A stretch of 64,000 nucleotides of DNA. It comes from a virus. Positions 5,107 to 63,016 of the stretch are shown here, in pieces (position 1 is the stretch's first letter; each line of letters starts with the position of its first letter). Location of the stretch: IMG/VR virus record IMGVR_UViG_3300034101_003479, positions 21,871 through 85,870 of that record. The stretch is one strand, 5' to 3'. The translations under genes were made by a program, and so were the position numbers. The notes under the pieces are model-generated. The model was not told where the DNA came from and did not search any database. It saw only the letters and a list, made by a program, of their open reading frames with translations.

Positions 5107-5107
5107 A

Positions 5108-5254: not shown

Positions 5255-5256
5255 AT

Positions 5257-5841: not shown

Positions 5842-5859
5842 ATCTATATTATACTCCTA

Positions 5860-6426: not shown

Positions 6427-6691
6427 TTATTATGCCCCACAAAATCTTTTTGCTTTCGTTATTTAAATTTTTTTCACAAGTAGAACATACAGATAGCTGG
6501 TTATATCTGCTTAGTTTAGTTTTGCAAAACTTACAAGATCTTTTTGCGCCGTTCTTGATTGCCTTTTTTTCATAATACTTTTCCATAATTTTACGATTTG
6601 TTGCAACCCTACAGCATTGCTCATTACAGTATTTTTGATTATGTGTTTTTGGCTCAAAGTCTTTTGCACATTCTATGTTTGAGCAAATCAT
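6413..6691 (-). CDS. Cys-rich zinc-finger protein
   Basis: CSNIEC...YCNEQCC...CKFC...CSTC. Confidence 0.65.
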   Translation of the reverse strand: MICSNIECAKDFEPKTHNQKYCNEQCCRVATNRKIMEKYYEKKAIKNGAKRSCKFCKTKLSRYNQLSVCSTCEKNLNNESKKILWGIISELS

Positions 6692-10231: not shown

Positions 10232-10419
10232 TAGTTCACCCTGTATTGATTGCTATGTCCATCGGGGCACTGCCAAGACATTATTAATGTATCTGGGTCC
10301 CAGAAAGACTCTTCTGCATCTTTACTGCATTTGCCACATGGTTTTGTTCCAGAAATAGTTTCTAGATTATTCTTTTGTATCTTTTCTTTTTTATTAAAGA
10401 ATTCATTTAGATTGGGCAT
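10231..10419 (-). CDS. small zinc-ribbon protein
   Basis: CGKC...CPDGH. Confidence 0.55.
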   Translation of the reverse strand: MPNLNEFFNKKEKIQKNNLETISGTKPCGKCSKDAEESFWDPDTLIMSWQCPDGHSNQYRVN

Positions 10420-47694: not shown

Positions 47695-49281
47695 TTAGGC
47701 AGTCGTTCTTCCTTCACCTTTTGGATTTCTGGCCTCCCCAGAAATATCGGGGGAATTAGAGGATCTTTCCTGGGTTCTTTGTCTTGAGTTTCCAGCCTGG
47801 GCTCTTTGTTCTGCTGCAGCCTGTGGCTTTAATTCTACAACCTCGTCTCCGCCATCCATAGGAATCATTCCTTTTCTAATTCTTACTTCATTTGGAGTGA
47901 TTACCTGCATTCTTAAATATCTTTCGTCAATCTTAGACTGGGTATCTTCATCGGTTAAAGTTAATTCGTTAAACTTAAGCAATAACGCATCTGTTTTTTC
48001 TAATATTATTCTGTTGATTTTCTTTTCTAGAATATCTTGGGCTGGTCTGCATACCTGCTCTTTAAATGTCTTGTCTGCGTCTCTAGCAGAAGCCAAGCTT
48101 ATTCCTTCTGGGACACCAATTTTATTAATTGGAACTCTGTGTGCTAATAGTATTTCATCTCTATTTGATTTGCGATATTTTTCAAATGAGCCTTCTTGAT
48201 TTCCAGCTTCAATTGGCTCCATCTTAAATTCAACCTTAGAGTCCGAGGTGTCTGGGGGTAGGGGGACATACAGGGATCTGTGATTTTTACCTTTTAGTCC
48301 AACTTGGAAAAACTCAAGAAGCTTTCTTTCTGACTCTGGAGATAGCTTTGCTCCCTTTACTGTAATTATATATCTTGGGACCGCTTTATTTTCAAAGTAG
48401 TCTAAGTTATATTTTCCAGAAAATTCATTTCCAGCCATTGCTGTCTGAGCTGCAATGATATCTGGTATTCCATAATAGTTATTCATTGGTGTATACTTTT
48501 TTAAATGAATAATTTCATTTGGTCTTTCTAATCCACCATCAATTGGATTTGGAGTTTCTTGATCTCCAAAGTTACGGAAGTATACTGCCTTTCCGTAAAG
48601 CAATTGAATAAATCCATCACGCAATCTGCGAACACGCATTGTTTTAGATGGGATATGGCCTATGTATCCAATATTTCCAGCAACCGTTCTTCCTATTTCA
48701 ATATAGGCGTTTCCAGTTGCCTCTAGGTCTGTATATGCTTTAATTAGTGTTTCTGTAAAAGTTTCTTCTTCGTTCGTTTCCTCAAGCCAATTGTCTAAAT
48801 CTTGTCTTAGCTTGTTTAATTTTTTGCGAGCACGTTCTAGCTGCTTTGTATCAGATATGCTATCTAATGCATCATTTGCTTTTTTTGTTTCTACAAAAGA
48901 ATATCCTAGTCCAACAATATTAGCAACCTTTGCATTAATCGCTGCGTAGTTGTACGGTGATATCTCATAAATTTTTGATAAGTACTCTAGGTTATAAACT
49001 GGCTGAACAAGGTCAAACATAGCGTAGCCAGTAACCGCTTGCTGTAATAGGTTTTGCTGTGTTCCAGTTCCTTCTTGTCCAACAAGTCTCTTTTGAATAT
49101 CTCTTGAAACTTTTCTACGAAATGTTGTGCTAAGACCGCTTACCTTTTTTAACTCTTGTGCCTCTATGTTAAATGGGTCTGTGTCCACCACCACTTCTTT
49201 ATTGTTAAACTTAAACCAATCGGCTGAATTTGATATGTCAATAGTCTCTGGGCTTACGTCGTCATCGTTAATGAATTCCAT
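47695..49281 (-). CDS. portal protein
   Basis: DLEATGNAYIEI, NEIIHLK...YYGIP, ILLAHRVP, ITPNEVR. Confidence 0.92.
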   Translation of the reverse strand: MEFINDDDVSPETIDISNSADWFKFNNKEVVVDTDPFNIEAQELKKVSGLSTTFRRKVSRDIQKRLVGQEGTGTQQNLLQQAVTGYAMFDLVQPVYNLEYLSKIYEISPYNYAAINAKVANIVGLGYSFVETKKANDALDSISDTKQLERARKKLNKLRQDLDNWLEETNEEETFTETLIKAYTDLEATGNAYIEIGRTVAGNIGYIGHIPSKTMRVRRLRDGFIQLLYGKAVYFRNFGDQETPNPIDGGLERPNEIIHLKKYTPMNNYYGIPDIIAAQTAMAGNEFSGKYNLDYFENKAVPRYIITVKGAKLSPESERKLLEFFQVGLKGKNHRSLYVPLPPDTSDSKVEFKMEPIEAGNQEGSFEKYRKSNRDEILLAHRVPINKIGVPEGISLASARDADKTFKEQVCRPAQDILEKKINRIILEKTDALLLKFNELTLTDEDTQSKIDERYLRMQVITPNEVRIRKGMIPMDGGDEVVELKPQAAAEQRAQAGNSRQRTQERSSNSPDISGEARNPKGEGRTTA

Positions 49282-49617
49282 TTATCTCATACCACCTTTT
49301 TTTAGAGAGTCTTTGTAGACTCCAATATCTAATGGATCTGGTGTAAGGCCCCACTCTAATCTTTGTTTTTGATGCTGAAATTCTTCATCATCAATTTTTC
49401 TACGACCTGCCAAAAACTTAGGCTGTCCTTCGTATATTCCGTGTGCTCTAACTGCATCCGCCAACAGGTTTATTTTTGATCGATTGCCCTTTTTTGCTGT
49501 GATGGATAAAAAGTTTCCATCGTCGTCGCCGATCCATCTTCCATCTGGCATTTCCCAGACATAGATTCCAAGGGTGGTCTCTTCTATTACCTGCTGATTA
49601 ATTCTTTTAATATCCAT
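49282..49617 (-). CDS. conserved-looking hypothetical protein upstream of portal
   Basis: 111 aa; promoter TGGACA-17 nt-TAAAAT at 49627-49655. Confidence 0.65.
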   Translation of the reverse strand: MDIKRINQQVIEETTLGIYVWEMPDGRWIGDDDGNFLSITAKKGNRSKINLLADAVRAHGIYEGQPKFLAGRRKIDDEEFQHQKQRLEWGLTPDPLDIGVYKDSLKKGGMR

Positions 49618-49680
49618 TGTGTATTAATTTTACCATTCTTTTTAGTTAATGTCCATATTTTGGCAAGACAATGTTCAATT

Positions 49681-51411
49681 TTATGAGTTTTGTAGCACGA
49701 TCCAGTCATTGTTATATATATTTACTGAATTTTCTGACAGGCTTAGTGTTGATCCACTAGATTGATATTTTGATTTTTCTGTGTACATCTCGTAGTGGCT
49801 TTGAGCCATGCCAGCCCCCAAGACATAATCATATATTGTTACATATTGATATAAGGACTTCTCAGAGCCCTCCTGCCTGTAATTAAATACGATCTGCTCG
49901 GTTATTGGGTTGGTGAGGGCCAGGACTACATGGTGCAAATCCTTTGGCTTAAATATATTCGATATTTGTGTTTCAGATGTCCTGTTTACCCCATTTACAT
50001 AAAGGCCAGATATGTTGTTTTTTGTAATGCTTCCATTGCTAGACCATCTAAATTCTGTACCCTCGGCTGAAAGTAAAGAACCGCTTGAAATTGTATTTGG
50101 GGTATAAAAAAATTCTATCGTGGATACAGATTTTGATGTATTGAGATTAAAGCCAGAGTCAGAATCAACCAGTATTCCATTTAAGCTATTATTACTTAAA
50201 ATAGGATAAGCTTCTTCCCCAAAGTTTGCATCTAAATCTTCAATTTTTGAAATATAGGATCCGCCATTTTTAGAGTACAGTATTTGGGTATTATAAAAAT
50301 TAACTTCTAGGCCATGCAACTTAGGCACATATTTTGATGAGTCTGATGAGCTGATAACGATTCTTATGTAAAAGAACTTTTGATCACTAAATTCTGCATA
50401 CTTAAATTGAGGTATTGGTTCTCCATTTTTGCATTCCAAATATGTTGTGTCGTCTAAACTTGTATAAACGCTAATTCCATTTTGACCGCTCCAAAATATT
50501 CTTGAAGAGTCCATTGTGATACCAGAAGGCATAGAAATTATATCGTTTAAAATAACTTCTTTTGTTTCCTGAGTGTTTGTTTTTGACAACTCTATATAGT
50601 TTTCAGACCTATTTAAGTTTAAATCTTCATTTAAAAAATACTCCCAAGATTTATCTTTGGGATATGAAAAAGAAAAAGAATTTCTCATTGTGTTGTCGTA
50701 TATATAAAAGATTTCTCCGCCGTCTGGATAGGCTACCTGTATAGGCATAACCTTGTTATTGTCTAAAAAGTGAGAGTATATCTGTCTTTCAGGCAATCCG
50801 TATCTATAAACTGCAACGTTATTAATTAAAAATTTATCAAGTATATTTTCTGTTGGGCCAGACTTTAAAGATATATCTGTATTTGTAAATGGATTAGAGG
50901 GCATTATTTTGCTAACACAAAGAATACCATCTACATAAATAAATGCTTTATTTACGCTGTATGTACAAACTATGTGCAATGACTTATTAAAATTTGGAAC
51001 TGAATACTCTAAGTAATCTGTGTCCAGTCCAAAAAATATGTTACCGTTATCCCAAAAAATTCCTATATTATTTTCTTTGTCCGCAACTATCGGTGTAAGG
51101 TTGTCTGTTTCTATTTGTGGTAATATCCAGCACTCTATTGAAAAGTCATTGTCGCCATCATTAATATTTGCAAACCCGCCTTTTGCTGTTTGGCCGTAAT
51201 AGTCTTTGTCTAAAGAAAATGTAATACTAGAAGAGGAAGTTACTTTTGAAGAGTACGAGCTGCCACTAACAATTGGATTCTTGTTGTCCTTTGGTCCTGA
51301 ATAGGATCCATTATTCTGGCAGCCAGAATAGTCTACTGCTGTTGTGGAGCTATCGTCTAGCTTCCAAAAGCCAATTGGGCTATCTTTAAGAACCTTGTAG
51401 TAGTATGACAT
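49681..51411 (-). CDS. LamG/concanavalin A-like domain virion protein
   Basis: DSPIGFWKLDD...DFSIECW...HIVCTY...IYVDG...INNVAVY. Confidence 0.75.
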   Translation of the reverse strand: MSYYYKVLKDSPIGFWKLDDSSTTAVDYSGCQNNGSYSGPKDNKNPIVSGSSYSSKVTSSSSITFSLDKDYYGQTAKGGFANINDGDNDFSIECWILPQIETDNLTPIVADKENNIGIFWDNGNIFFGLDTDYLEYSVPNFNKSLHIVCTYSVNKAFIYVDGILCVSKIMPSNPFTNTDISLKSGPTENILDKFLINNVAVYRYGLPERQIYSHFLDNNKVMPIQVAYPDGGEIFYIYDNTMRNSFSFSYPKDKSWEYFLNEDLNLNRSENYIELSKTNTQETKEVILNDIISMPSGITMDSSRIFWSGQNGISVYTSLDDTTYLECKNGEPIPQFKYAEFSDQKFFYIRIVISSSDSSKYVPKLHGLEVNFYNTQILYSKNGGSYISKIEDLDANFGEEAYPILSNNSLNGILVDSDSGFNLNTSKSVSTIEFFYTPNTISSGSLLSAEGTEFRWSSNGSITKNNISGLYVNGVNRTSETQISNIFKPKDLHHVVLALTNPITEQIVFNYRQEGSEKSLYQYVTIYDYVLGAGMAQSHYEMYTEKSKYQSSGSTLSLSENSVNIYNNDWIVLQNS

Positions 51412-51435
51412 TTAAAAATTATACCATTTGACGGG

Positions 51436-52134
51436 TTAGTATCCGCCCACGTGAAATGTCTGTCCAGTTAGACTGTTTGATTTTTGATCAATCAAGATAT
51501 CTACTACGTCACAGACGTCTTCTGTTGTAAATATCTTATTGCTCAATGTTTGTCCAGAGCCAAATAGTATTCTGTTAAATGTATCATCAGAAAGGTGCTT
51601 TGTCATCTCTGTCCTAATCATGCCTGGTGCTATGCAGTTTGCTCTAATTGATGTCTCTCTTAAAACCTTAGCCAAAGATCTTGTATAGCCCTTTACCGCA
51701 TATTTGCTTGCTGCGTAAACAGAAATTTCTGAATTTGAATGAGCAGCTAGGCTACTTATATTTATAACTGGTGTATGAACTTTTCTATTCATAAGAGGTA
51801 TAAATGCTTGACAGGTGTTTATAACACCAATAATATTTGTCCCAAACAATGATTGAATTTCTTCAGCTGACATCTTAGTCCAATCAGCAGTAAAGAAATC
51901 TTGTCCCAGCCCAGCACAATTTATTAAACCGCTAACCGTTATGCCTTGAGATTTTATTTCATTTGCAATTTCGTTAATTGCTTTTTTATCTGAGACGTCT
52001 GCTTGATAGGTTTTAAACGGTGAACCGCTTTTTGGTATGTTTCTAGATATTCCTGAAACTTCGTATCCATTCTTTAAAAGCCTATTAACAATTGCATTGC
52101 CCATACCACTGCTAGACCCTGTAACTATAAACAT
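51436..52134 (-). CDS. short-chain dehydrogenase/reductase (SDR)
   Basis: TGSSSGMG, INCAG, NISS, YAASK, NCIAPGMIRT, VGGY. Confidence 0.92.
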   Translation of the reverse strand: MFIVTGSSSGMGNAIVNRLLKNGYEVSGISRNIPKSGSPFKTYQADVSDKKAINEIANEIKSQGITVSGLINCAGLGQDFFTADWTKMSAEEIQSLFGTNIIGVINTCQAFIPLMNRKVHTPVINISSLAAHSNSEISVYAASKYAVKGYTRSLAKVLRETSIRANCIAPGMIRTEMTKHLSDDTFNRILFGSGQTLSNKIFTTEDVCDVVDILIDQKSNSLTGQTFHVGGY

Positions 52135-52787
52135 TATTCTGTCCCGTCTGAGTAGTATGCGTTTTTTCTATTGTGGTACCAGTTTGGCAAAGAGTATCTT
52201 GTTCCGCTTGTAACTGCGTCTACTTCATGAACGTATACAAAATTTGAAGGGAAAAACAGCAGGCTTCCAGCTTCTGGCTTGATGTCTATGCCTGCGTGAG
52301 GGAATCTAATATTTCCACCTTCATAATCATTATTTAAATACAAAAGAGCAGACAAGACTCTACTACTTATTCCATGATCAGAATGTGCTGGCAGGAATCC
52401 ACTTTCTTTATACTTTAAAAGATGCATTGTTTTTTCTCTAGACTTAATATTCTTTTCTGCGTATGGGTATAAAGAGAAATAATGCTGCAGACCTTTTTCT
52501 AGTCCATCGAAAAGGATTGAAGATATTTCAAATTGTTCTTGGTAAAACAAATCTGTTTTTTGAATGTCTTCTGGCTTTGGTAAAAACTTTTGCCAACAGA
52601 AAACTGTTTTTTCTTTATTACCATGGTCATAGTCCCATGCCTGCCATGGCTTTACAGATTCAGATCTATAGGAATCAGCATTACTTCTTTTTTCTTCTAG
52701 GTCTTCTATTTTGTTAATTAAATCTGCTGGGTTATCTATTATGTTTTTATAATAAACTGCCCCTAAAGCTAATTCTTCGTAATTCAT
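52134..52787 (-). CDS. prolyl-4-hydroxylase-like 2OG-Fe(II) oxygenase
   Basis: PAHSD...LYLNNDYEGG...FPSNFVYVHEV...GTRYS. Confidence 0.9.
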   Translation of the reverse strand: MNYEELALGAVYYKNIIDNPADLINKIEDLEEKRSNADSYRSESVKPWQAWDYDHGNKEKTVFCWQKFLPKPEDIQKTDLFYQEQFEISSILFDGLEKGLQHYFSLYPYAEKNIKSREKTMHLLKYKESGFLPAHSDHGISSRVLSALLYLNNDYEGGNIRFPHAGIDIKPEAGSLLFFPSNFVYVHEVDAVTSGTRYSLPNWYHNRKNAYYSDGTE

Positions 52788-53330
52788 TTAGCACCCCTCA
52801 AAATCTGGATCCATGAACTCTTTTTTTGTAGATTGCATATAAAGAGCCGTGAATCTATTACCACTTGTTATTTCTTTTACCCCGTGAATATAGTTAAAAC
52901 TATTGCCTGGGAAAAATATTGCTGAGTATTTCTTTGGCCTGTGCTCAAAAGATTGTCTTGGAAAATAAATCTCTCCGCCTTCATATTCATCATTTAAATA
53001 TATCACAGCGCTGTATTCGATAAAAGGCTCTTTTTCTATCGCATCAATATGTGGTGCTCCACTTTGGCCAGGATTCCAGAATGAACCAAAAGCTTTTGTA
53101 ACAATTACATCTTTTTCTAATTCAAAAAATTCTTTCTGTATCCTATTTGCATCGACTGCATATTTCTTTAATAGCGACATAACTGTTTTGTTATAAGGGA
53201 AGGCAGTACCGCCGTTTCTATCTTTATAGTATGATGGATACTCGTTTATCTCTGACGGCCTCTTCATCTCATTGATTAAAACATTTGCGTCTTCTTCTGT
53301 TATAAAGTCTTCTACTATTTTTATTAACAT
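52788..53330 (-). CDS. prolyl-4-hydroxylase-like 2OG-Fe(II) oxygenase
   Basis: PHID...IYLNDEYEGGEIYF...YIHGV...GNRFT. Confidence 0.9.
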   Translation of the reverse strand: MLIKIVEDFITEEDANVLINEMKRPSEINEYPSYYKDRNGGTAFPYNKTVMSLLKKYAVDANRIQKEFFELEKDVIVTKAFGSFWNPGQSGAPHIDAIEKEPFIEYSAVIYLNDEYEGGEIYFPRQSFEHRPKKYSAIFFPGNSFNYIHGVKEITSGNRFTALYMQSTKKEFMDPDFEGC

Positions 53331-54148
53331 TACCTAAGCTCCTTAACTTTATTAATATATCTTAAGCCGCCAATTTTATCAGTTTGAGATTGAGCTGGGT
53401 CATACGCAACATCGTTATCTTCAAACGGCAATTGCTCTATGTCTAAGCCAAAATGCTTTTTGACCTCATCCTTATACAGATCAACAAATTTATTATAATT
53501 ATGGTTTAAAGAAAACGGTGTATATTCTTTTTCTAGATCAGATCTATGTATAGATAAATACTCGTCTGGGAAGTTATACATCTTTATACCATTATTTATC
53601 ATATCTATCGAGATAGACTCTTCTTCTCCATTATATTTTAAGTATTTAGGATACTCTATCTTTTTAAAATCTTCAGTAAGTCCAAATAGAAAATTTCTAT
53701 CTATATATTTTATCTCATTAAACTCTTTTGATGGTGTTCTTGTTGCTGATAAATGGAACCAGTTCTTATTCTTTAACGAGACAGTAGAGTTTCCAGTTAG
53801 AATTGAATTTTTATTCTTTGATATGAAATCTATTGCATATTCGTCCCAATTTTGTATTAAGCTCAAGTCATCTTCAACCTGCATATAATATGTTTTATTT
53901 AAAATATTTAATGCCTGTTGCTTATACTCAATTGGGCTTTTAATTGAGTCCCATTTAACATAGTTGTATGAAGTAGAGTGATAAGATTCTGGCTCGGCAA
54001 AACCTCTTGTTCTATCCAAATTGTTTTGGTCTATGACATAGAAATACAAAATATTCTTTTTACTAGACTTTTCTTTTATTTCTTCTATTAAGTCTAATAG
54101 CTTTTTATTTTGATATGAGTATATACAAATTCCAATAGTGCTTGTCAC
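53330..54148 (-). CDS. divergent GlcNAc-transferase (GT60 / Skp1 hydroxyproline GlcNAc-transferase-like)
   Basis: TIGICIYSYQ (family TIFVSIASYR), YYMQVEDD..NWDE (family Y.LQIDSH...WD), NFLFG, YNGEE. Confidence 0.6.
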   Translation of the reverse strand: MTSTIGICIYSYQNKKLLDLIEEIKEKSSKKNILYFYVIDQNNLDRTRGFAEPESYHSTSYNYVKWDSIKSPIEYKQQALNILNKTYYMQVEDDLSLIQNWDEYAIDFISKNKNSILTGNSTVSLKNKNWFHLSATRTPSKEFNEIKYIDRNFLFGLTEDFKKIEYPKYLKYNGEEESISIDMINNGIKMYNFPDEYLSIHRSDLEKEYTPFSLNHNYNKFVDLYKDEVKKHFGLDIEQLPFEDNDVAYDPAQSQTDKIGGLRYINKVKELR

Positions 54149-54789
54149 AGCAATGGTATCCAGTGTTGTGGTTCTGCTTTATTGGCAATTAAGCTTTTTA
54201 GTGGAACTATATCGTACGCAATAGTTACTCTAGGGCCTTCCCAGTCCCAGTCTCCCATTGCATGTGGGTGTCCCATTTCCGAGATAATCATTCTGTTATT
54301 CTTGTTATGATTTTCTACTTTGTTTCCAAAAACGCTATAATACGTAGTTGAAGGCTCTGCATTTACCGAATAGTAACCGTGAAAATAGGGGGCATAAGGG
54401 CCACCGTGATCATGCCAATCAAGCTTGCCACTATGATTGTAATTAATATTAAACCAACCCTGGACCATGTATCTTTGCTCTTCAAAGTTGACACCATAGT
54501 ACTCACAGGCTTCTTTAATAGTTTCCGATATATTCTTATACAGCTTATAAATAGACTCATGATAAAACTGAAAAACATTGTACTCTCTCCATTTTATTGT
54601 CGACACGCTATCGGATGATAGCCAGTGATCTCTTGGCGTAACCTTTGTTATTCCAGACAACTTAAGGTTTTCCATGTTAGCATATTGATTTTGCAAAAAC
54701 TCTGCAAGCTCTGGGAGATCGTTGTCTAGGTATCTCTCAAAAAACTTATGTTCTTTGCCTGTTGGCTGGTTCATATACATATTTTCCAT
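54145..54789 (-). CDS. 2OG-Fe(II) oxygenase-like protein (TIGR02466-like)
   Basis: WFNIN...WHDH...HGYY...HPH...PRVTIAYDI. Confidence 0.75.
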   Translation of the reverse strand: MENMYMNQPTGKEHKFFERYLDNDLPELAEFLQNQYANMENLKLSGITKVTPRDHWLSSDSVSTIKWREYNVFQFYHESIYKLYKNISETIKEACEYYGVNFEEQRYMVQGWFNINYNHSGKLDWHDHGGPYAPYFHGYYSVNAEPSTTYYSVFGNKVENHNKNNRMIISEMGHPHAMGDWDWEGPRVTIAYDIVPLKSLIANKAEPQHWIPLL

Positions 54790-55548
54790 TTATATTTTCC
54801 CTCTATATTGTTTCCGTTGCCATATTATATTTTTATAATATGCATATATTAAAGATCTTCTTTTTTCGTCCTTGATTTGGTTTTGCTCTATATTGTCATT
54901 TGAATAATCTATTTCAAGAGACCATTCTTCTCTTTTAATAGGAATCATTTGAAATATAGGAGTTCCTTTAGGTATTATACCAATAAAGTTGCGTTTTAGG
55001 AAGAAGGACGTAAATACTGGGGTATGCCATAAATCTGAGTCTATGATTCCGCTCATTGTGGTAAATGGCAAGTCATGCCTATTTAACGGATGTGTTATTA
55101 ATAAAGAATATCCCTTTGGCGTTTCTGAGTACCAGTTAACCTTCCACCCATAATGCATTGGGTGATGTTGGGTGGGCACTGGGACATCTATCATCAATCT
55201 TTTATCTACTATCATATTATCGCCTTCCCAAGAAAGTACTGGGAAGCCATTCTTATCTTGACTTACATGAAGATCGTAGTCTAAGGTGTACATATATCCA
55301 GAAGTCAATGCATCAAAAAATGGCATACATAGCTTTGTCGAGGCTGCGCTTCCGTCGGTACCTCTGTCATTTACTGGGTATAGCTTGCTAATACTATTTG
55401 ATTTATGAAACTTAGATAGTTTTTTATACCAAGAAGGAATATGTCTTTTTGCTTCTTGTGGTTCATTAAAACAACTATAGTCTGTAAAGCTGTTTATGTC
55501 TGTAATGAAGGCTGGAGAGAACTTAACCCTTAGTTCTTTTTTTCTCAT
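54790..55548 (-). CDS. hypothetical protein, paralog of 56251..56982
   Basis: IPSWYK..TKLCMPFFDALTSGY..TPKGYSLLITHP..GIIDSD..GTPIFQMIPIKREEW. Confidence 0.7.
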   Translation of the reverse strand: MRKKELRVKFSPAFITDINSFTDYSCFNEPQEAKRHIPSWYKKLSKFHKSNSISKLYPVNDRGTDGSAASTKLCMPFFDALTSGYMYTLDYDLHVSQDKNGFPVLSWEGDNMIVDKRLMIDVPVPTQHHPMHYGWKVNWYSETPKGYSLLITHPLNRHDLPFTTMSGIIDSDLWHTPVFTSFFLKRNFIGIIPKGTPIFQMIPIKREEWSLEIDYSNDNIEQNQIKDEKRRSLIYAYYKNIIWQRKQYRGKI

Positions 55549-56254
55549 ACTCCCCTATAATTCTTTTAATTGTTTTCCTATCAGATTCTATTTGTATATC
55601 AAATAGGTAAGATCCTCTTTTTATTAAACCGCATATGTTATCTTCCATATGTTTATCAGATGTTGTAAAATAAAAATCAACAAAATTAGCTTCTTTTATT
55701 ATAACATTTTCATTTGTTTTTGTAAAATAATCTTCTTTTTCTATTGCTACAATAGAAGAATTTTCTAAGTTTGTTTTTACCGTATACTTTATATCCATGT
55801 CTAAAAACCATGGTATAAACATTTTAAAAACTCTATCGGACATAGGGTTTATTTTATCTATATTGTATATATTTGAAGATGGATAAAACTGTCTTAGCCA
55901 GCATTTATCCGTAGCATACAGCAAGCTATTTATTGGATTAGATTTAAATATTCCTTTGTGTCCCATCATTGGGTCTGCTATCTGTATTAATATGTCTGCA
56001 TAGTTACTATATCTTAAATAAATCTGAGTGTCTGAAATTTTTATAACTTCTGGTGGATCTGAAAAATTAGCAACATACATGTTGACTGGCTTAAGTATTG
56101 CTTTCTTGTATGCCTTATTGTTTTTTACACATGACCAATTTTTCCATTTTGGCAAAAGGTTAGAAAAATTAACTATTTGCTCAAAGCTCATGTTAGACAT
56201 CAAGCCCCAGGATTCTGACTCGAATGGGACCCTGTTAATTACTTTGGTGCTCAT
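55523..56254 (-). CDS. hypothetical protein
   Basis: 243-aa ORF overlapping its neighbours. Confidence 0.6.
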   Translation of the reverse strand: MSTKVINRVPFESESWGLMSNMSFEQIVNFSNLLPKWKNWSCVKNNKAYKKAILKPVNMYVANFSDPPEVIKISDTQIYLRYSNYADILIQIADPMMGHKGIFKSNPINSLLYATDKCWLRQFYPSSNIYNIDKINPMSDRVFKMFIPWFLDMDIKYTVKTNLENSSIVAIEKEDYFTKTNENVIIKEANFVDFYFTTSDKHMEDNICGLIKRGSYLFDIQIESDRKTIKRIIGEYEKKRTKG

Positions 56255-56982
56255 TTATATGTTTTCTTTTTCCAAAACTTCATCCTGTATCCATTTTGAA
56301 AAACTGATCTTACACCTAAGTTCTTTTCTTTTATCATAAAATCAGAATCTTTTTCTTTATTAATAGAGCTTTGCCAGTCATCTCTTTTAAATGGAATGAC
56401 CTGCATAATTGGAGTCCCCTGCTTAATAATTCCCTTAAATCCCTTTTTAACAAAAAAAGATAAATATCCATCAGAAGGATATTCGTCTGTATCTATTACC
56501 CCTGGGACCGCCTTGATAGGAGAATCTTCTCCGTGCATAGGAGCAACAAATAAAGAGCTGTATCCTGTTTCTGTTTGAACCAACCACATTGGGTGTATCC
56601 TCACAACCTCTGGGTGAAAGTAATCTGGTATCGGGTACTTGGCCATTTGTTCTTTTAAATGGTTTGCAACAAGGTGTTGCTGCATTCCCATTATATCCGA
56701 AGTTAGCTGAACATGTAGCTTTTCGCCTGTTGCATCTATTGATATGTCTGCTGGGCACTTTAGGTAGTAGCCGAATGTCATTGCATCAAATACCGACTGA
56801 CATTTTTTAACTGTAAGCATCATTGTTCCACTATAGACATTTTGATCATTATTTAAATGGCTTTCTTGTGACTTCCACCACTCTGGTATTGCCGATACGA
56901 CACTAACTGGCTCTGGAAATACCTTACTATATAGTCTAAATTTTGGAATAAACTCTATATTAATCATGAAAGCGGTATCCAT
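56251..56982 (-). CDS. hypothetical protein, paralog of 54790..55548
   Basis: IPEWWK..TVKKCQSVFDAMTFGY..TETGYSSLF..GVIDTD..GTPIMQVIPFKRDDW. Confidence 0.7.
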   Translation of the reverse strand: MDTAFMINIEFIPKFRLYSKVFPEPVSVVSAIPEWWKSQESHLNNDQNVYSGTMMLTVKKCQSVFDAMTFGYYLKCPADISIDATGEKLHVQLTSDIMGMQQHLVANHLKEQMAKYPIPDYFHPEVVRIHPMWLVQTETGYSSLFVAPMHGEDSPIKAVPGVIDTDEYPSDGYLSFFVKKGFKGIIKQGTPIMQVIPFKRDDWQSSINKEKDSDFMIKEKNLGVRSVFQNGYRMKFWKKKTYK

Positions 56983-57527
56983 TTCTGATAGTACTGTCTG
57001 TAGAGATACTCTAGGGGAGAAATATTAAAAGATAGCATTACGAAATCATTGCTTATTTGATTAAATAATATCTTTGCTGATGACTCCAGGAATATTAATT
57101 GTCCAGGTACTAGATCAACTTTTTCATCATTAATAAACATTTCATCGTTATTTGACGACAATATATAAAACCCTACAAATGTTGTTTTATAGTTTGGGGC
57201 AAAGTTTACATATGTATTTAATGGAACAGTTTCGTTTTTAACTATATTCCCTAATAGGTAAAAATAGTTTCTTTCAAAATTAACATTTGACTCTCTGCAA
57301 AATTCTTTTGCAATGTCGTTAATTTCTTTATACAGAATATGTATATTTCTACTATACATTGAAAAAAAGTTAAAGGTTCTATAATCAATTAGTGATACTT
57401 TTTTAGGCTTAAATCCAAGCTTTAGCCCAGGATTAAACTTGTACACATACTCATGCATTTCCGCAAGCATTCTATTGTATTCGGATAGCAAAGTTTTATT
57501 GTTTATGTTATTAATATTTTTTATCAT
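56964..57527 (-). CDS. degenerate 2OG-Fe(II) oxygenase-like protein (related to 54145..54789)
   Basis: FNFFSMY..IHILYKEI..GFY..SFNISPL..QKWIPL parallels YNVFQFY..IYKLYKNI..GYY..AYDIVPL..QHWIPL; His ligands missing. Confidence 0.5.
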   Translation of the reverse strand: MIKNINNINNKTLLSEYNRMLAEMHEYVYKFNPGLKLGFKPKKVSLIDYRTFNFFSMYSRNIHILYKEINDIAKEFCRESNVNFERNYFYLLGNIVKNETVPLNTYVNFAPNYKTTFVGFYILSSNNDEMFINDEKVDLVPGQLIFLESSAKILFNQISNDFVMLSFNISPLEYLYRQYYQKWIPLS

Positions 57528-58158
57528 TTGGCTCCCAAACGCTCATGGAATGAAACAGGGCAGGAAAAACAGGGTCTTTATATATTACTAAGTCTGCTGG
57601 CATATTTATCTGTGGCAGTTCTCCTGGAGTCATCCCGCCCTTAACTACCTTTTCTGCTTTTTTGCCAGTCAAGTTAAACCTTTTTTTGGCTGAAGCTGCT
57701 ACCATATTTAATCCGCTTAAAGCTACTGCTTGTGTGCCTTGGGTATATCCTGGACCAAGTCTAGGTAATATATTAAAAAAACTACACCATATTGGATAGC
57801 CAATAAGAGATAGAGACTCCATATATTTCTTTTTTCTATGAAGCGGGCTTGTATAAAACCTATCTGTTATTGCAGTATAATGATCTTTATCGTATCCGTC
57901 TATAATAATTGTAGCCCATGAAACTGGATAGTCATTATTAATAAATCCAGACATTACAATAGTGCCAGACTCGTTATCTGTATTTTTATACAAGCATTCT
58001 ATTGCTTGAGAATTACCTTTATCTGTAAATACAGTGTATTGAGCCCAGGTTCCTTCTATATACTTAGGATACCTTCTAAAGCTTGGTATAGGTTTTCCAT
58101 CAAAATATTTAGCACCAGAAATGCCCATTCTATGTGCTTTTTTTAATTTTTCAAACAA
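57511..58158 (-). CDS. possible GNAT-fold acyltransferase
   Basis: DRFYTSPLHRKKKYMESL resembles GNAT motif A (V.P.YR.KG); TTG start. Confidence 0.4.
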   Translation of the reverse strand: MFEKLKKAHRMGISGAKYFDGKPIPSFRRYPKYIEGTWAQYTVFTDKGNSQAIECLYKNTDNESGTIVMSGFINNDYPVSWATIIIDGYDKDHYTAITDRFYTSPLHRKKKYMESLSLIGYPIWCSFFNILPRLGPGYTQGTQAVALSGLNMVAASAKKRFNLTGKKAEKVVKGGMTPGELPQINMPADLVIYKDPVFPALFHSMSVWEPNDKKY

Positions 58159-58170
58159 GTTAATTCCTGA

Positions 58171-59478
58171 CTACTGTTGGTCTTGAGAATCTCTCCATTG
58201 TTGATACATTGCGTCTAGCTTATCGCTAAATGTTTCGTCGCTAGAAGTTAACACGTTTGGATCATCTATTGCTCTGTAAGAGTCGTGTACTAATGCGTTG
58301 TCTGTAAAGAATACATCGTATGGTTCAACGTCAATTGAAACCAAAAGTTCTCTCTGATCTGTAATCTTGTAGTCTGTAATTGCCACCCAGTCTGACTCTG
58401 ATGGTGAGAAGATTAAATCTGTCTCTAAAACCTCTGCAGAAGGCTGGAATTGAATCTCGTTGTTTCTTTTAATTAAAACAAAGTGTTGCTTTGAGTACTT
58501 ATTTCCATTAATAACAACAGCACCCTCTTGAGAAATTCTTGCTGCCATTGCAACAATAGTTGTTTCTACATCCTGAGATATACTTGCGCTATTTGAAGAC
58601 CAATTTTGTAAATACTCTAATATTGCTGTATTCGAAACATCAATACCTTCGATATTTGCAGAGTAAAGAACATCTCCTACGCTCAAATTGTGAGCTAGAA
58701 TTAGTCCCTCTGGCACCTTAGACTTAATAATTGTTTCTGCTCCTACCGACTTAGGAGTAAACCCAAATGGTGTAAACCCGAATGGAGTAAACCCAAATGG
58801 TGTAAACCCGAATGGTGTAAATCCGAATGGAGTGAACCCAAATGGGGTAAATCCGAATGGTGAGAAGCTAAATGGTGTTGTGGTAATTTGATTTGAATTA
58901 GAGCTATATGAAGAAAACCCGTTATCATTTTGAGCTCTTACTCTAATGGTTTGGGCTTCGTTTCCATTTTCAGAAACATTTGCAGAGAATGTATTTGCAT
59001 TGTATGAGTAAGTATCATTTTCATGATCAATTAAAGAATAGCCTGTGATGCCCTTTCCACCGTTTGATGATGGTGCTGACCAGGATACTGCGTTTGTTTC
59101 TGCTCCGTTATTTGAGAGACTTGGGGCATTTGGTGTACTTGGGACAGTTGTTGCTGTAATTGAATTACTTGCATCTGAAGGAACTGAGTTTCCTACTGCA
59201 TTTGTAGCTATAACTGTAAATGTATAGCCAGTTGTAGACTGTAGACCTTCTACTGTAATAGGAGAAGCAGATCCAGAGCCAGTGTAGTTTCCTGGATTTG
59301 ATGTGACTGTATATGAAGTAGCTGGTGGAGAATCTACACTCATTGTAAATGATACGGATGCAGCTCCATTATTAAACGGTCTATTTGTTCCTATATCTGT
59401 TGCTGTTCCTATAATTGGCTTAAATGGCTCTAAAAAGTCATTAGCCGATTGGCTCATTCTACCTGCTTGCTTTGACAT
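58171..59478 (-). CDS. FN3-FN3-(PFGFT)n-Hint (intein-like) protein
   Basis: two FN3 domains (ITVEGLQSTTGYTFTVIATNAVG; VSWSAPSSNGGKGITGY), 8 pentapeptide repeats, Hint blocks SVGAET / LSVGD / SKQH / SIDVE..FFTDNALVHD. Confidence 0.8.
   Translation of the reverse strand: MSKQAGRMSQSANDFLEPFKPIIGTATDIGTNRPFNNGAASVSFTMSVDSPPATSYTVTSNPGNYTGSGSASPITVEGLQSTTGYTFTVIATNAVGNSVPSDASNSITATTVPSTPNAPSLSNNGAETNAVSWSAPSSNGGKGITGYSLIDHENDTYSYNANTFSANVSENGNEAQTIRVRAQNDNGFSSYSSNSNQITTTPFSFSPFGFTPFGFTPFGFTPFGFTPFGFTPFGFTPFGFTPKSVGAETIIKSKVPEGLILAHNLSVGDVLYSANIEGIDVSNTAILEYLQNWSSNSASISQDVETTIVAMAARISQEGAVVINGNKYSKQHFVLIKRNNEIQFQPSAEVLETDLIFSPSESDWVAITDYKITDQRELLVSIDVEPYDVFFTDNALVHDSYRAIDDPNVLTSSDETFSDKLDAMYQQWRDSQDQQ
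58756..58875 (-). repeat. 8 x 15-nt coding tandem repeat (PFSFS + 7 x PFGFT)
   Basis: units such as CCATTCGGATTTACC and CCATTTGGGTTTACT; the seven PFGFT units differ only at synonymous positions. Confidence 0.95.
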
Positions 59479-59501
59479 GTATGTTCTCCCCTATTATTTC
59501 T

Positions 59502-62500
59502 TTAAGCTAAAAGATCTCCAAAAACTAACCAACCGCTTGGAGTTTTCATTGCTGTTACTACTGAGTTTGTGTTTCTGAATTTTAAGCCTGGTGTACCAAC
59601 AACGCCGTTTGTTGAAGCAAATGATGCTCCAGTTCCTGACGCTTGGTAGAAGTCAATTGATTGACCAGTTGAATATCCAGATGAAGGAAGAGTAATTTGT
59701 ACCGCTCCACTTATTGGGATAAACTTATCTTGCTCGCCAGATGCGAGTGTCTCTGATGATGTTCTCTCTGTTCCAAATGTTGTTATAGATGGAACACCAA
59801 TCTTTGTCTGTGTTCCGTCTGAGAATGCGATTCCAGATGCTGACACAGTCACTGTGCCAGTAAATGTCGGAGCATTAATTGGGGCCTTAGTATCTATTTG
59901 AGTTTGAATTGCTGATGTAACTCCATTTAGATATCCAAACTCTGTATTTGAAACATCTCCTACCGTTAATGATGATGCATTTATTGCTGCAACTTGTAGG
60001 TCTGAATATTCAATACCTGCTTCTGCGAAATTTACAGTTGAAGTTGGCTTTGTTGATGCATGCTTAAATGCTTTAATAACGCCGTCGGAGGCATCACGGA
60101 CAATACCTGAATATTTAGTGTTGCCACCAATAGTGTATTCTCCAATAAAACCTAGGTCAACAATATCTGATGCGTTGTTGTCTCCTGTGAAAATTAGTGG
60201 ATCTGTTACTGAGAGGTTTGATGTTTCTACAGTTGTTCCTTCTCCTCCGAAAACAATAGTTCCTTCAATTGTAACATCTCCGTTAATATTCAGGTCTCCC
60301 TGAATACCAACTCCACCAACTACGGTTAATGCACCTGTTGTTGGTGATGTAGAAGGTGTATCAATTTCAATGTGAACATTTTCATCTGGGAAAATAGTCA
60401 TTTGTGTATTGTTTGACTGTAATCCTCCTGCAGCAAAAACAATGTGGTTGTGTGTTCCATTAGCACCAGTTGCAATTACAAGATTTCCGTTTCCAGCTGT
60501 TCCTACTGGGGCTTCCATAAATATGTATCCGTCATTTCCGCCAGTTATCGTAAAGTCTGGGTCTGCGAATGTTGGTGCGGTAATTCCGATGTTTACCCAT
60601 CCAGAAGCATCGTTTCCATTTGAAGAGTATAAAATCACATCTGTAGATGAATTTGGTGCATCTGTTGTATTTTTAACTGCAACTTGTGCATAATCATTTG
60701 CTGCAGTTGAAAACACTGCAATTGGGTTTGTATAATCATCGTCTGTTCTTAAATCTTTTGCATCTGCTCCGACATTGAAGTCATTTGTAGATACCTCTAA
60801 ACTATCTGTAGCTATTGCATTCCCACCGTCAGACATTGCTGCGACAGCATCTGCTGTAGATCTTACTGATGTGTAGTACTTGTTTGTTGTACCCTCTTCA
60901 ATATCATCAGTATCTAATGCATTTATAGCATCTGTAGTAAATGTTTGTGCTGCTGTAATTGCATCTGCTTCTGCTGTGTCTGCGTATGATTTTGTTGCTA
61001 GAAGTGCTGTATCAGCAATTCCATGAACATTTTGAGTTACAGATGCATGTGTTGATATTTTAGAATCTGCGGTGCTGTCTGCATAAATTTCTGTGTTGCT
61101 AATTTCGTTGTCAACATATTGCTTAGTTGATGCCTCTAAATTATTTTGTGGGCTTCCACTTAGTACTAGTGCTCCAGTCATTGTAGAACCAGTTTTTAGC
61201 ATTAAATCTGCTGTATTTGAAATTCCGTGGACGTTAGTTTCTGTACCATTATGTGTGGTAATTGCATTCCCAATAGACTCAGACACCTCGCTGTTTGTTA
61301 CTAATAATGTTGTATCTGGAATGCCGTGAACATTTGTTGTTGATGTAGAGTGGGTCATTCCAGCTTGTGTAATAACTCCCAATGCATTTGTCATAGTTGC
61401 TGCATAATTTTCATCTTCGCCTATAGCTTCCGCCAACTCATTTAAAGTATTAAGTGTTTCTGGTGCAGAGTCAACAAGTTCAGCAACTTTATTGTCTACA
61501 TATGAAGTTAAGGCTAATGTACCTGAAGCGTTTGGCAAAGTAACTGTGCGGTCTGCTGTTGGGTCCCCAGCCTCTAATACTGTTTCAAACTCATTATTTG
61601 TTGTGCCTTCAAAAGTAATAAAGTGTGGTGATGGAAGATAGATTCCATGAATACGTGGAGTGCCACCAGTTGCTGTAATCTCTCCTCCGTTAATTGTTGG
61701 AGTTGTTAAAGTCTTATCTGATAGGGTTTGTTGTCCAGCTAAAGTGACTACGGTATGATTTCCGTTTCCAATTGGTATTGTTGTAGAGTTTCCACTATGG
61801 CTAAGCTTTATATCGGTGCTGTCTATCTCAATTGTGGCTGTGTCTAAATAGAGTGTTGTGCCAGATAGATACAAATCTTTAAACTTATTTTCAGGGGATC
61901 CCAAATCGTATGTGGCATCAGATGAAGGAATAATATCTCCTCCAACTGTTGCTCCATTTATAATAGGGCTTGTTAAAGTTTTATTTGATAAAGTTTGTGC
62001 TGTATCTGTTCCAACAACTGTTGTAGTTGCATCTGGGAAGGTGATAGTTCTGTTTGCTGTTGGGTCTGTTACTGCAAGTGTAGTTTCAAAATCATTACCT
62101 GTTGTGCCCTCTAATATAATGCTTGACTTTGGAACAAGTAGGTTGCCGTTAGCATCTAGCTTTGCTGGTCCGCCTGCATTTCCTACATCTGCTAGTAAAA
62201 CATAATCAGATGTTACTGTATTTTGTAATCCGCCAACTGCGTTATCTACATATGAATTTGTGGCAATAACATTTGTATCAACTGTGATAGAAATTGTATT
62301 TGTAACGTCATTGTAAGACTTTGTAAGACCTGAGCCCATTGAAAGAGCTTGATCAATTGCATCTTGTGCAATTTCGGTAATGGCTGGCGAGTCAGCGGCT
62401 ATGTATGAAAGACTAGTCCATGCTGTGTTGCCAGTTCCAATTTTTAACTTACGAGTGTCTGTTTCAACACCCATTTCTCCTGCTGCTAGAGTAGGATTTA

Positions 62501-62555
62501 CTGAGGTCCACTCTGCTGCTGTGCCTCTTCTTACTTGAATTCTTACTGTTGACAT
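59502..62555 (-). CDS. tail fibre with Mtd-N/hyaluronidase-type N-terminal domain
   Basis: IQVRRGTAAEWTSVNPTLAAGEMGVETDTRKLKIG; QTLSNKTLTSP repeats; three TH....NVHGI repeats. Confidence 0.8.
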   Translation of the reverse strand: MSTVRIQVRRGTAAEWTSVNPTLAAGEMGVETDTRKLKIGTGNTAWTSLSYIAADSPAITEIAQDAIDQALSMGSGLTKSYNDVTNTISITVDTNVIATNSYVDNAVGGLQNTVTSDYVLLADVGNAGGPAKLDANGNLLVPKSSIILEGTTGNDFETTLAVTDPTANRTITFPDATTTVVGTDTAQTLSNKTLTSPIINGATVGGDIIPSSDATYDLGSPENKFKDLYLSGTTLYLDTATIEIDSTDIKLSHSGNSTTIPIGNGNHTVVTLAGQQTLSDKTLTTPTINGGEITATGGTPRIHGIYLPSPHFITFEGTTNNEFETVLEAGDPTADRTVTLPNASGTLALTSYVDNKVAELVDSAPETLNTLNELAEAIGEDENYAATMTNALGVITQAGMTHSTSTTNVHGIPDTTLLVTNSEVSESIGNAITTHNGTETNVHGISNTADLMLKTGSTMTGALVLSGSPQNNLEASTKQYVDNEISNTEIYADSTADSKISTHASVTQNVHGIADTALLATKSYADTAEADAITAAQTFTTDAINALDTDDIEEGTTNKYYTSVRSTADAVAAMSDGGNAIATDSLEVSTNDFNVGADAKDLRTDDDYTNPIAVFSTAANDYAQVAVKNTTDAPNSSTDVILYSSNGNDASGWVNIGITAPTFADPDFTITGGNDGYIFMEAPVGTAGNGNLVIATGANGTHNHIVFAAGGLQSNNTQMTIFPDENVHIEIDTPSTSPTTGALTVVGGVGIQGDLNINGDVTIEGTIVFGGEGTTVETSNLSVTDPLIFTGDNNASDIVDLGFIGEYTIGGNTKYSGIVRDASDGVIKAFKHASTKPTSTVNFAEAGIEYSDLQVAAINASSLTVGDVSNTEFGYLNGVTSAIQTQIDTKAPINAPTFTGTVTVSASGIAFSDGTQTKIGVPSITTFGTERTSSETLASGEQDKFIPISGAVQITLPSSGYSTGQSIDFYQASGTGASFASTNGVVGTPGLKFRNTNSVVTAMKTPSGWLVFGDLLA

Positions 62556-62595
62556 ATTTATTACCCCTTATTTGCTAATTATAGCATTATTTTGT

Positions 62596-62952
62596 TTAAA
62601 CTAGAACCCCAGAATCAAATATAATTCCATATACTGAAGTCGATGGAGATCCACCGTCAGCAAATTTAGTTGCTGTGGTGTTTACTCCGTTTGCCTGTAC
62701 TGTGTATATTGGAAGTCCATTATAATCTATTGCTAATCCAACATCCATAAACCCAATTTCTGTTGAGTTGTCTGGAATATCTGAGACAAAAGCTATAGGA
62801 CTCCAAGTTCCATTTAACTGGATTTGTAGCTTATTTGTTGCTGTATCAAATCTTAAGGGGGTTGTTCCCAATATAACGTCAGAACCAAATGTGGCATCTC
62901 CTGCGACATCGATTCCATTCTTAACTTTAAAGTTCTTATCTGTTGTTGACAT
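62596..62952 (-). CDS. small tail-fibre-associated protein
   Basis: KNFKVKNGI N-terminus; C-terminal ADGGSP..IFDSG. Confidence 0.55.
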   Translation of the reverse strand: MSTTDKNFKVKNGIDVAGDATFGSDVILGTTPLRFDTATNKLQIQLNGTWSPIAFVSDIPDNSTEIGFMDVGLAIDYNGLPIYTVQANGVNTTATKFADGGSPSTSVYGIIFDSGVLV

Positions 62953-63016
62953 TTAAGTTCACATATCCCCTAATTGTTTTGGTGGGGTTTTGAAAGGACC
63001 CCCTACCTTTATTTAA

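Follow-up and report, generated by a model that had tools for sequence, protein, structure and literature searches.

Do the ten genes that follow a repeat-bearing gene of a freshwater phage act on the product of that gene, and if so, how? The question is raised by a stretch of 64,000 nucleotides (nt), hereafter the window, from the virus record IMGVR_UViG_3300034101_003479 (positions 21,871 to 85,870), which forms the final 64 kb of this 85.9-kb IMG/VR record (CheckV completeness, 74%). In the window, gene g02 encodes a 435-amino-acid (aa) protein with two FN3 domains, a (PFGFT)n repeat and an intein-like Hint domain, and the genes g03 to g12, here called the island, lie directly downstream. 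A preliminary description made from the sequence alone had taken the island as a dedicated set of hydroxylases, glycosyltransferase, acyltransferase and short-chain dehydrogenase/reductase (SDR) that modifies the repeat after its exposure by the Hint domain. That the island tailors the g02 repeat, by hydroxylation and perhaps glycosylation, is the single most likely reading, held at rather less than an even chance and drawn from adjacency and family analogy.

The FG repeat of g02 and its relatives

The g02 precursor is composed of the following parts, in window coordinates.

58171..59478, minus strand: g02, 435-aa precursor with a conserved N-terminal peptide, FN3, FN3, the (PFGFT) repeat, the Hint domain and a 36-aa acidic tail
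58876..59361, minus strand: two FN3 domains of g02 (residues 40-104 and 105-201), from Pfam fn3 and titin matches
58750..58875, minus strand: repeat PFSFS(PFGFT)7PK, g02 residues 202-243, the candidate substrate and predicted mature C-terminus
58282..58749, minus strand: Hint domain, g02 residues 244-399, with Ser1, SKQH and a terminal His-Asp, from a profile and the Pfam matches of relatives
58174..58281, minus strand: 36-aa acidic tail after the Hint domain, its first residue being Ser+1, conserved only in the lineage of the window (alignments A4 and A7)

The order FN3-FN3-PFSFS(PFGFT)7PK-Hint, previously read from the 435-aa protein encoded after the tail-fibre genes, was confirmed by Pfam fn3, titin and intein profile matches. 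The first FN3 domain matched Pfam fn3 at 3.2e-09 (37.3 bits against a cut-off of 25), and the second was recognised by titin FN3 matches, for example the single-domain chain 8oq9_A at 3.9e-4. No signal peptide was found in g02. The repeat DNA was reported by Tandem Repeats Finder with a 15-nt period and 8.1 copies. The seven PFGFT units are identical as protein and their DNA differs only at third codon positions, in four of the five codons, indicating that the peptide, not the DNA, is what is conserved. The PFGFTP core was also invariant in homologs down to 37% identity (alignment A7), and the repeat was the sole periodic Pro-bearing low-complexity stretch on the coding strand of the window.

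A total of 105 relatives of g02 were found in IMG/VR, and 77 loci were fetched, their open reading frames (ORFs) called and the products clustered. The repeat was present in nearly all relatives and always stood directly before the Hint domain whatever the N-terminal part, which consisted of two FN3 domains, one FN3 domain, a PASTA domain (Pfam 2.2e-7, L077 copy) or a multidomain protein of ~900 aa. In some lineages the FGFTP units were separated by long runs of (GAF)n. A second FG-repeat-Hint gene with another N-terminal module, either a PASTA domain or a roughly 940-aa multidomain protein, was seen in many relatives (L002:4065-5093, L036:46-801, L077:41-928 and L016:2967-5801); the repeat plus Hint unit therefore behaves as a portable C-terminal cassette. 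The FG-repeat plus Hint (FG-Hint) proteins are a well-defined and apparently undescribed protein family of freshwater phages, a conclusion that stands even if the link to the island fails.

Predicted self-cleavage by the Hint domain

In bacterial intein-like (BIL) and Hedgehog-type proteins, the Hint domain cuts the chain at the junction on its N-terminal side. The Hint domain of g02 was analysed with a profile and residue counts from 28 non-redundant relatives. Two inteins, the gp41-1 mini-intein (3.5e-6) and one of a DNA polymerase (3.8e-6), were matched by the profile, as was 2lwy, a bacterial intein-like domain (2.5e-4), and Pfam reported Intein_splicing in 8/28 and Hint_2 in 6/28 of the relatives; the window copy alone gave no Pfam Hint match. 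This copy starts with K|SVGAETII, has SKQH as block B and ends with LVHD, after which the 36-aa acidic tail opens with Ser.

Position 1 of the domain was Ser in 21 and Cys in 7 relatives, that is, Ser or Cys in all 28, and the block-B His was kept in 23 of them, whereas the C-terminal pair was variable (HD 10, FD 8, HN 6, YD 2, LE 1 and HK 1; n = 28). In place of the splicing-type His-Asn with a +1 nucleophile, the window has His-Asp and Ser, and the relatives include six with HN followed by Lys and eight with FD. The conservation of position 1 together with the variation of the C-terminal pair suggests that selection acts only on the chemistry at the N-terminal junction. Versions of g02 without the Hint domain were found in eight loci (L050, L053, L055, L059, L066, L067, L068 and L078), with the island still adjoining. 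They stop a few residues past the repeat, in ...TPR, ...PFR, ...FLK or ...VPR, and these ends resemble the predicted cleaved end of the window protein, ...TPK. Self-cleavage at the N-terminal junction, leaving the repeat as a C-terminal tail, is probable and best accounts for the data, because of the Hint conservation pattern and of the Hint-less versions ending just after the repeat. The exposure of the repeat put forward in the preliminary description is in this way backed by comparative data (Ser or Cys in 28/28, eight Hint-less loci) and keeps the standing of a prediction. For the window type, splicing or an adduct-recognition role of the tail may also apply, because Ser occupies the +1 position and the tail is conserved.

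A stand-alone Hint-like gene was also observed after the second FG-Hint gene of L036, L077 and L081 (hhalign to the Hint profile, 75%, E 2.6e-5). The stretches carrying the stand-alone Hint-like and prolyl-4-hydroxylase (P4H)-like genes are L036:707-2035, L077:939-2178, L043:680-1917 and L081:5255-6477. In the P4H-like gene that follows the stand-alone Hint-like gene, the first His of HxD was lost in L036, L055 and L077 and kept in L043, and such second-copy genes without the first His may encode a pseudoenzyme or a binding protein.

Seven gene families recur next to g02

The ten genes after g02 abut or overlap, as had been noted before, with spacings from +12 nt to -26 nt. Among the 72 loci with at least 800 nt downstream, the next gene belonged to an island family in 69, namely g03 in 36, g04/g08 in 19, g05/g07 in 13 and g10/g11 in 1. 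The three exceptions, L034, L035 and L038, had a gene of family F6 in this position; they hold only an upstream-type copy and end before the main copy.

The 70 island-bearing loci represent 14 g02 clusters at 60% identity; their islands come in about 15 compositions, all made from the same seven families, with one to eleven genes each. A class II ribonucleotide reductase (RNR; family F11, RNR_Alpha 2e-32) comes after the island in distant lineages and upstream of the fibre genes in the lineage of the window; the g08 and DUF6065 families remain with g02 in either arrangement and do not move with the RNR. An assignment of F11 as a terminase was ruled out by the Pfam result. Genes for g09-type glycosyltransferases (GTs) were found beside P4H-like genes in nearly all loci having them, and in L060 the GT and P4H-like pair is located upstream of the fibre module. 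Judged from sequence comparison, the island is a coherent set of seven families that expands and contracts and whose recognisable members are mostly of the protein-modifying type.

Other genes were seen within or after the island of some relatives. An AspH-like (aspartyl/asparaginyl beta-hydroxylase) gene is present in L039 and L047 (L039:12699-13304, 2.1e-12), and a TP_methylase-family gene is an extra island member in L017 (L017:16809-17516, 2.2e-21). A collagen-repeat protein with a Peptidase_S74 chaperone domain is encoded directly after P4H-like genes and SDR in L016 (L016:18754-19812), L018, L024, L031, L039 and L047; the lineage of the window has no collagen-like gene.

Oxygenase genes of the island

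Four genes of the island belong to two oxygenase groups.

56964..57527, minus strand: g04, 187 aa, degenerate g08 paralog with all metal and 2-oxoglutarate (2OG) ligands lost, from family clustering and ligand columns
54145..54789, minus strand: g08, 214 aa, predicted Fe/2OG-oxygenase fold with H126, D127, H128, H137, H176 and R187, from a model and conservation
52788..53330, minus strand: g10, 180 aa, P4H-like 2OG oxygenase with intact HxD...H...R (phrog_61 6.4e-16, alignment A6)
52134..52787, minus strand: g11, 217 aa, P4H-like 2OG oxygenase with intact HxD...H...R (PF13640, 2OG-FeII_Oxy_3, 4.1e-16, alignment A6)

The two P4H-like oxygenases named in the preliminary description were recovered as g10 and its paralog g11, by phrog_61 and PF13640 (for g11, 60.2 bits against a cut-off of 27) and by the intact motif, and both are predicted from family and motifs to be of the prolyl hydroxylase type. 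In relatives, the first His is missing from several of the P4H-like copies. Co-folding of g11 with g02 residues 196-248 gave a score of 0.01 against a mark of 0.32, a result that speaks neither for nor against binding.

The predicted model of g08 had a predicted local distance difference test (pLDDT) score of 93.9. Foldseek returned 120 PDB matches at E<=0.001 with 2OG dioxygenases leading. Among the best structures in the VIA search (Z 16.7-12.6), 3bvc_A (Z 16.7) and 2rg4_A (Z 16.3) came out on top, with 171-173 residues aligned at a root-mean-square deviation of 2.7-2.9, and PHD2 and bacterial prolyl hydroxylases were found at Z 13-14, making prolyl hydroxylases the nearest functionally characterised structural neighbours. 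Of 37 g08-type sequences, all have H126, H137, H176 and R187 and 36 have H128; position 127 is D in 32 and E in 5. The predicted metal ligands are among these conserved residues. In g04-type sequences all six ligand columns were replaced or deleted in 9/9. The proposed pair of an intact and a degenerate oxygenase is borne out, because the g08 residues are conserved and the g04 type has lost them all, and the fold agrees as well. The proposed family name fared differently: none of 46 members of the g04/g08 family matched TIGR02466 at E<=1 and no member matched PF13759. The two best structural matches, 3bvc_A and 2rg4_A, are uncharacterised proteins of 2OG-oxygenase fold from marine Rhodobacterales, which we take to be TIGR02466 members; they resemble g08 in fold and differ from it in sequence (12-13% identity). 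In Pfam and NCBIfam searches g08 itself had no family match, the g08/g04 profile found chance-level matches only among PDB sequences, and in the scan of its own genome PF13759 touched only g11, weakly. The g08 family comprises 993 clusters at 90% identity.

Further oxygenase genes were noticed outside the island. A 2OG-FeII_Oxy_3 protein of 303 aa (4.2e-12) is encoded far from it among the replication-region genes (10403-11314, minus strand). Outside the window, an 846-aa signal-peptide protein with long Ala/Thr and Pro/Thr/Val-rich stretches is encoded at G000:C1:14621-17161 (minus strand), and a P4H-like gene lies three genes downstream of it, with a 193-aa gene directly after (G000:C1:10918-12257, minus strand, for the pair). 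The genome would then have two Pro-rich proteins with a P4H-like gene nearby.

Glycosyltransferase-like, DUF6065 and other island genes

The other six genes of the island are listed below.

57511..58158, minus strand: g03, 215 aa, GNAT-like candidate, from ESM Atlas look-alikes
56251..56982, minus strand: g05, 243 aa, DUF6065 / phrog_7084 (4.8e-43), predicted dUTPase-like fold
55523..56254, minus strand: g06, 243 aa, possible third, divergent DUF6065 paralog, from hhalign of alignments A8 and A3
54790..55548, minus strand: g07, 252 aa, DUF6065 paralog of g05 (phrog_7084 1.4e-36, family clustering)
53330..54148, minus strand: g09, 272 aa, remote relative of PF11397, the family of the Skp1-pathway N-acetylglucosamine (GlcNAc) transferase, from the Pfam matches of relatives and BLASTP
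51436..52134, minus strand: g12, 232 aa, classical SDR (adh_short 7.8e-40; 136.9 bits against a cut-off of 26.6)

The earlier designation of g09 as GT60-like holds for its relatives, 9 of 19 family members matching PF11397 (best 1.5e-40), and the PF11397 cut-off of 21 was passed by L060 (140 bits), L052 (29.2) and L064 (24.2). Window g09 is connected to the L060 protein by BLASTP (E 1e-11, 25% identity over 234 columns), but had no Pfam match of its own at E<=0.1. In the GT60/PF11397 family the DxH/DxD motif binds the metal. Where the L060 protein has DSH, g09 has EDD, only the middle Asp being common across alignment A1, and this difference leaves the catalytic competence of g09 uncertain. 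Searches of the PDB sequences with the g09, g05/g07 and g03 profiles gave chance-level matches only.

For g03, the term acyltransferase went beyond the evidence: Pfam, NCBIfam and the PDB (profile) returned no match, and the language-model look-alikes in the ESM Atlas, GNAT clusters at 0.94 with PF00583 on 27-42% of the cluster members, make it a lead only. Across the 28 Hint relatives, Lys at position -1 of the Hint junction (58749/58750) and g03 occurred together in 10, Lys only in 2, g03 only in 0 and neither in 16. Such a pattern would be in line with an action of g03 at or close to the newly formed C-terminus; it is confounded by shared ancestry and was therefore not counted as evidence. 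The SDR of the preliminary description corresponds to g12.

The two mutual paralogs described earlier, g05 and g07, do belong to one family, which additionally proved to be DUF6065 with a dUTPase fold. Window g05 scored 18.6 bits with DUF6065 (PF19541), under the cut-off of 26.6, and 18 of 35 relatives matched (best 2.7e-7). In a VIA search of 48,161 representative chains with the g05 model (pLDDT 89.8), ranks 1-22 were all dUTPase or dCTP deaminase (Z 9.7-5.4), the next match having Z 4.2, and Foldseek against the PDB and BFVD agreed on a dUTPase/dCTP-deaminase fold for the g05/g07 family. Of the five motifs of dUTPases, which include the phosphate-binding Arg/Ser and a P-loop-like motif at the C-terminus, III and IV may have counterparts in a GIIDTD stretch and KGTPIxQ in the consensus of alignment A3. 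On the predicted model, DUF6065 is a family of dUTPase-like fold, and this too is independent of the link between island and repeat. The C-terminal regions of g06 and DUF6065 were equivalent in hhalign (A8 versus A3, probability 53%, E 1.3e-4), suggesting that g06 may be a third, decayed copy; no other match to g06 was found in Pfam, PHROG and NCBIfam, and no usable one in the ESM Atlas.

DUF6065 was also observed between fibre/adhesin genes and class II RNR, both in reduced islands of lake phages (L054:3883-6745) and in HF1/HRTV haloviruses (for example L079, HRTV-9, 4048-7738). The family occurs in cellular genomes as well, with unrelated neighbours in the bacterial genome G146, and no FG-Hint relative was found in those haloviruses. 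A shared mobile pair of DUF6065 and RNR was considered; the RNRs of phage and halovirus are only 24-30% alike over ~110 residues, and the halovirus RNR is transcribed divergently from DUF6065.

What the island may act on

On the reading that the island tailors the repeat, g02 would be a cytoplasmic precursor from which an accessory protein of the fibre module is made. Its Hint domain would cut itself off by an N-to-O acyl shift at Lys243|Ser244, a likely step given the conservation of this domain, and the remaining product, ending in ...PFGFTPK, would consist of the N-terminal peptide followed by both FN3 domains and (PFGFT)n. The ten downstream genes would be co-transcribed with g02, and the island appears to have stayed with the repeat gene throughout a large lake-water phage lineage. 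Its core would be of the protein-modifying type, with the apparently active Fe/2OG oxygenases g08, g10 and g11, the dead paralog g04 and the remote PF11397 homolog g09. The oxygenases would most likely hydroxylate [T/S/A/V]-Pro sites of the disordered repeat, and the GT may then add a sugar to hydroxyproline or Thr, so that the FN3 stalk displayed on the virion would carry a decorated aromatic tail.

Several observations weigh against this reading. The 77 loci all come from a single phage lineage in which gene order is conserved; their counts are therefore not independent, and common ancestry may account for the adjacency. The second, upstream FG-Hint copies mostly do not lie beside enzymes (F6 and then g01 come next in 11/18), and in the P4H-like genes that do adjoin them the first His is often missing. 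Relatives with only g08-like genes or one DUF6065 gene downstream, where no P4H or GT is present, have the repeat in unchanged form; because these relatives keep PFGFT, the word dedicated was too strong for the cluster. In some relatives (GAF)n, with few Pro or Thr, replaces much of PFGFT. The fit to a peptide-tailoring pathway claimed for the island is accordingly partial: folds of the protein-hydroxylase type and a PF11397 relative speak for it, whereas the P4H-like genes elsewhere in the genome do not, g09 lacks the DxH of its bona fide relative and fails Pfam alone, and the dUTPase fold of g05 and g07, whose family lies beside class II RNR in reduced islands and a halovirus, does not suggest peptide chemistry.

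Part of this evidence would be explained if the island modified proteins other than g02, such as the fibres, g13 (the Laminin_G_3 protein on the portal side of the island), the collagen-like fibres of relatives or the Pro/Thr-rich secreted protein, and adjoined g02 only through common membership in the fibre module. The collagen-repeat S74 protein right after P4H-like genes and SDR in six relatives offers an alternative substrate, as does the 846-aa Pro/Thr/Ala-rich signal-peptide protein with its P4H-like gene three genes away, and the constancy of the repeat in relatives without a nearby P4H or GT points the same way. Other substrates are nevertheless judged unlikely: the window's lineage lacks the collagen-like gene, g02 holds the only periodic Pro-bearing stretch on the coding strand, and across lineages the island stays beside g02 and no other structural gene. 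A pathway of the auxiliary-metabolic or secondary-metabolite type would instead have the oxygenases, SDR, acyltransferase-like protein and GT act on a sugar, nucleotide, glycan or other small molecule, with the dUTPase-fold proteins binding the nucleotide and g02 not involved. The fold of g05 and g07, the position of DUF6065 beside class II RNR in reduced islands and in HRTV-9, its occurrence both in cellular genomes and in haloviruses that yielded no FG-Hint relative, and the presence of SDR and GNAT-like proteins, which are typical of such pathways, all favour it, as does a cyanophage cluster with several 2OG and cupin hydroxylases (Iyer et al. 2021, PMC7824862, from the accessible part of the article). 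On the other side, oxygenases of the PF13640, PHD-like and AspH-like types and PF11397 GTs are best known as protein modifiers, a case in point being Skp1 (PMC3515798); the genes sit within the late structural operon, between the fibres and the portal, without a terminator-like site on the coding strand; and the low likeness of the RNRs and the divergent transcription in the halovirus mean that the RNR link may be chance. A small-molecule role is a minority possibility, if one to be taken seriously.

The island may also have no common function, the site after g02 being a hypervariable hot spot that collects unrelated accessory genes and decayed pseudoenzymes. Gene content between one and eleven, the dead oxygenase g04, the P4H-like copies of several relatives without the first His, g09 without DxH and occasional unrelated insertions, such as TP_methylase and several families of unknown function, would all be expected of such a site. 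Random cargo would hardly consist of the same seven families in all lineages, however, nor would it keep the catalytic residues of g08, g10 and g11 or overlap and abut like one translationally coupled unit, and a mere hot spot is accordingly considered quite unlikely.

Comparison with known systems

In the Skp1 pathway, hydroxylated Skp1 is the substrate of Gnt1, according to the accessible text of PMC3515798. As in this pathway of Dictyostelium and Toxoplasma, in which PhyA acts before Gnt1, a P4H-type gene of the island adjoins a gene of a PF11397-family GT. The island differs in being phage-encoded, in having a repeat as candidate target and not a single Pro in a folded protein, in a window GT that fails the Pfam model and has EDD for DSH, and in that no enzymes adding later sugars were identified in it.

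The g02 Hint domain resembles those of BIL and Hedgehog proteins in having no endonuclease insert, in its position at the C-terminal end of a variable surface-type protein and in the conserved nucleophile and block-B His, and its profile matches the solved BIL domain 2lwy and mini-inteins. Unlike them, g02-type Hint domains are always preceded by an aromatic pentapeptide repeat, and the window type has His-Asp plus Ser and a 36-aa tail. Fibre chaperones of the Peptidase_S74/endosialidase type are likewise C-terminal modules expected to remove themselves after their job; their fold and chemistry differ, with a Ser-Lys dyad in S74 against the ester formation predicted for Hint, and S74 proper is present on the collagen-like fibre in the same region in relatives.

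Virion glycosylation in mycobacteriophages was reportedly described by Freeman and co-workers (Freeman et al. 2023), with GT genes beside structural genes proposed to decorate virion proteins; other GT families are reportedly involved there, with neither hydroxylases nor a self-cleaving substrate. Pfam reported no recognition-element family of ribosomally synthesised and post-translationally modified peptides (RiPPs) for any island protein. Literature searches, supplementary files aside, turned up no account of phage proteins that combine an FG repeat with Hint, of DUF6065 or of the island. The nearest printed idea, as far as the consulted part of PMC7824862 goes, is the cyanophage 2OG/cupin hydroxylase cluster, which Iyer et al. 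2021 read there as serving capsule decoration or a secondary metabolite.

Genomic context and distribution

All genes of the window are carried by the minus strand (ORF list) and make up a tailed-phage gene set with DNA polymerase, a 2086-aa tape measure protein, minor tail proteins, major head protein, prohead protease and portal. Upstream of the portal gene lie, in this order, the small gene g14, g13, the ten-gene island, g02 and the fibre genes including g01, the latter separated from g02 by 23 nt.

59502..62555, minus strand: g01, 1017-aa tail fibre with an Mtd_N N-terminal domain (PF18454 4.8e-16), upstream neighbour of g02
49681..51411, minus strand: g13, 576-aa Laminin_G_3 (concanavalin-like) protein (PF13385 4.4e-09, phrog_11584), bounding the island on the portal side

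Six terminator-like sites were found in 49000-63000, none of them on the coding strand and hence none on that strand between g01 and g13; promoter-like sites were at chance level (48 found against 55 expected). A fibre-like gene at 63405-64000 (minus strand), cut by the record end, carries 57-nt and 102-nt tandem repeats with Ala-rich ADATSKANAAQ-type units.

Near-identical DNA is present in many lake-water metagenomes. The stretch was found, whole or in part, in 20 sequencing runs from lake-water or unspecified metagenomes, 11 of which were not flagged as a possible source, and no RNA run was among them. With the 8-kb region as megablast query, 50,697 phage records gave no match. With g02 as tblastn query, 48 of the same records gave partial matches, none covering 80% of the query; these fell on FN3 pieces and on the Hint-like ends of virion proteins from Erwinia jumbo phages. 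No cultured phage in this set has the 8-kb region or full-length g02. A scan of genome contigs yielded five loci (L080-L084). L080 and L081 are real relatives, short contigs with the fibre, FG-Hint and DUF6065 or P4H-like genes of the phage lineage, and they were binned with metagenome-assembled genomes of Chitinophagaceae/Ferruginibacter, a weak host lead consistent with the lake-water samples. L082 and L084 were rejected since they matched the g02 repeat only, in wrong frames or in non-coding low-complexity DNA, and L083, which matched the repeat stretch only, was set aside.

Implications

In its furthest-reaching form, which we regard as improbable, FG-Hint would be a new class of virion appendage. 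The Hint domain would form an ester at the end of the invariant aromatic pentapeptide repeat, co-inherited protein hydroxylases and a GT60-type enzyme would turn this repeat into a hydroxyproline- or Thr-linked glycopeptide tail, and the ester may even pass to an acceptor, as in Hedgehog proteins, instead of being resolved by water. Such a ribosomal, enzyme-tailored and virion-displayed peptide might, with the same low expectation, set adsorption or shielding in abundant freshwater Bacteroidota phages.

Few cases of phage-encoded post-translational decoration of phage particles are known. Tailoring of the g02 repeat by the island would, if true, be the first case in which a self-cleaving Hint domain, protein hydroxylases and a glycosyltransferase of the Skp1 type come together on a virion protein. 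Several large families of hypothetical phage genes, the g08 family and DUF6065 among them, would gain a function, and the tailoring would provide a handle on host recognition in a widespread uncultured lineage of lake phages.

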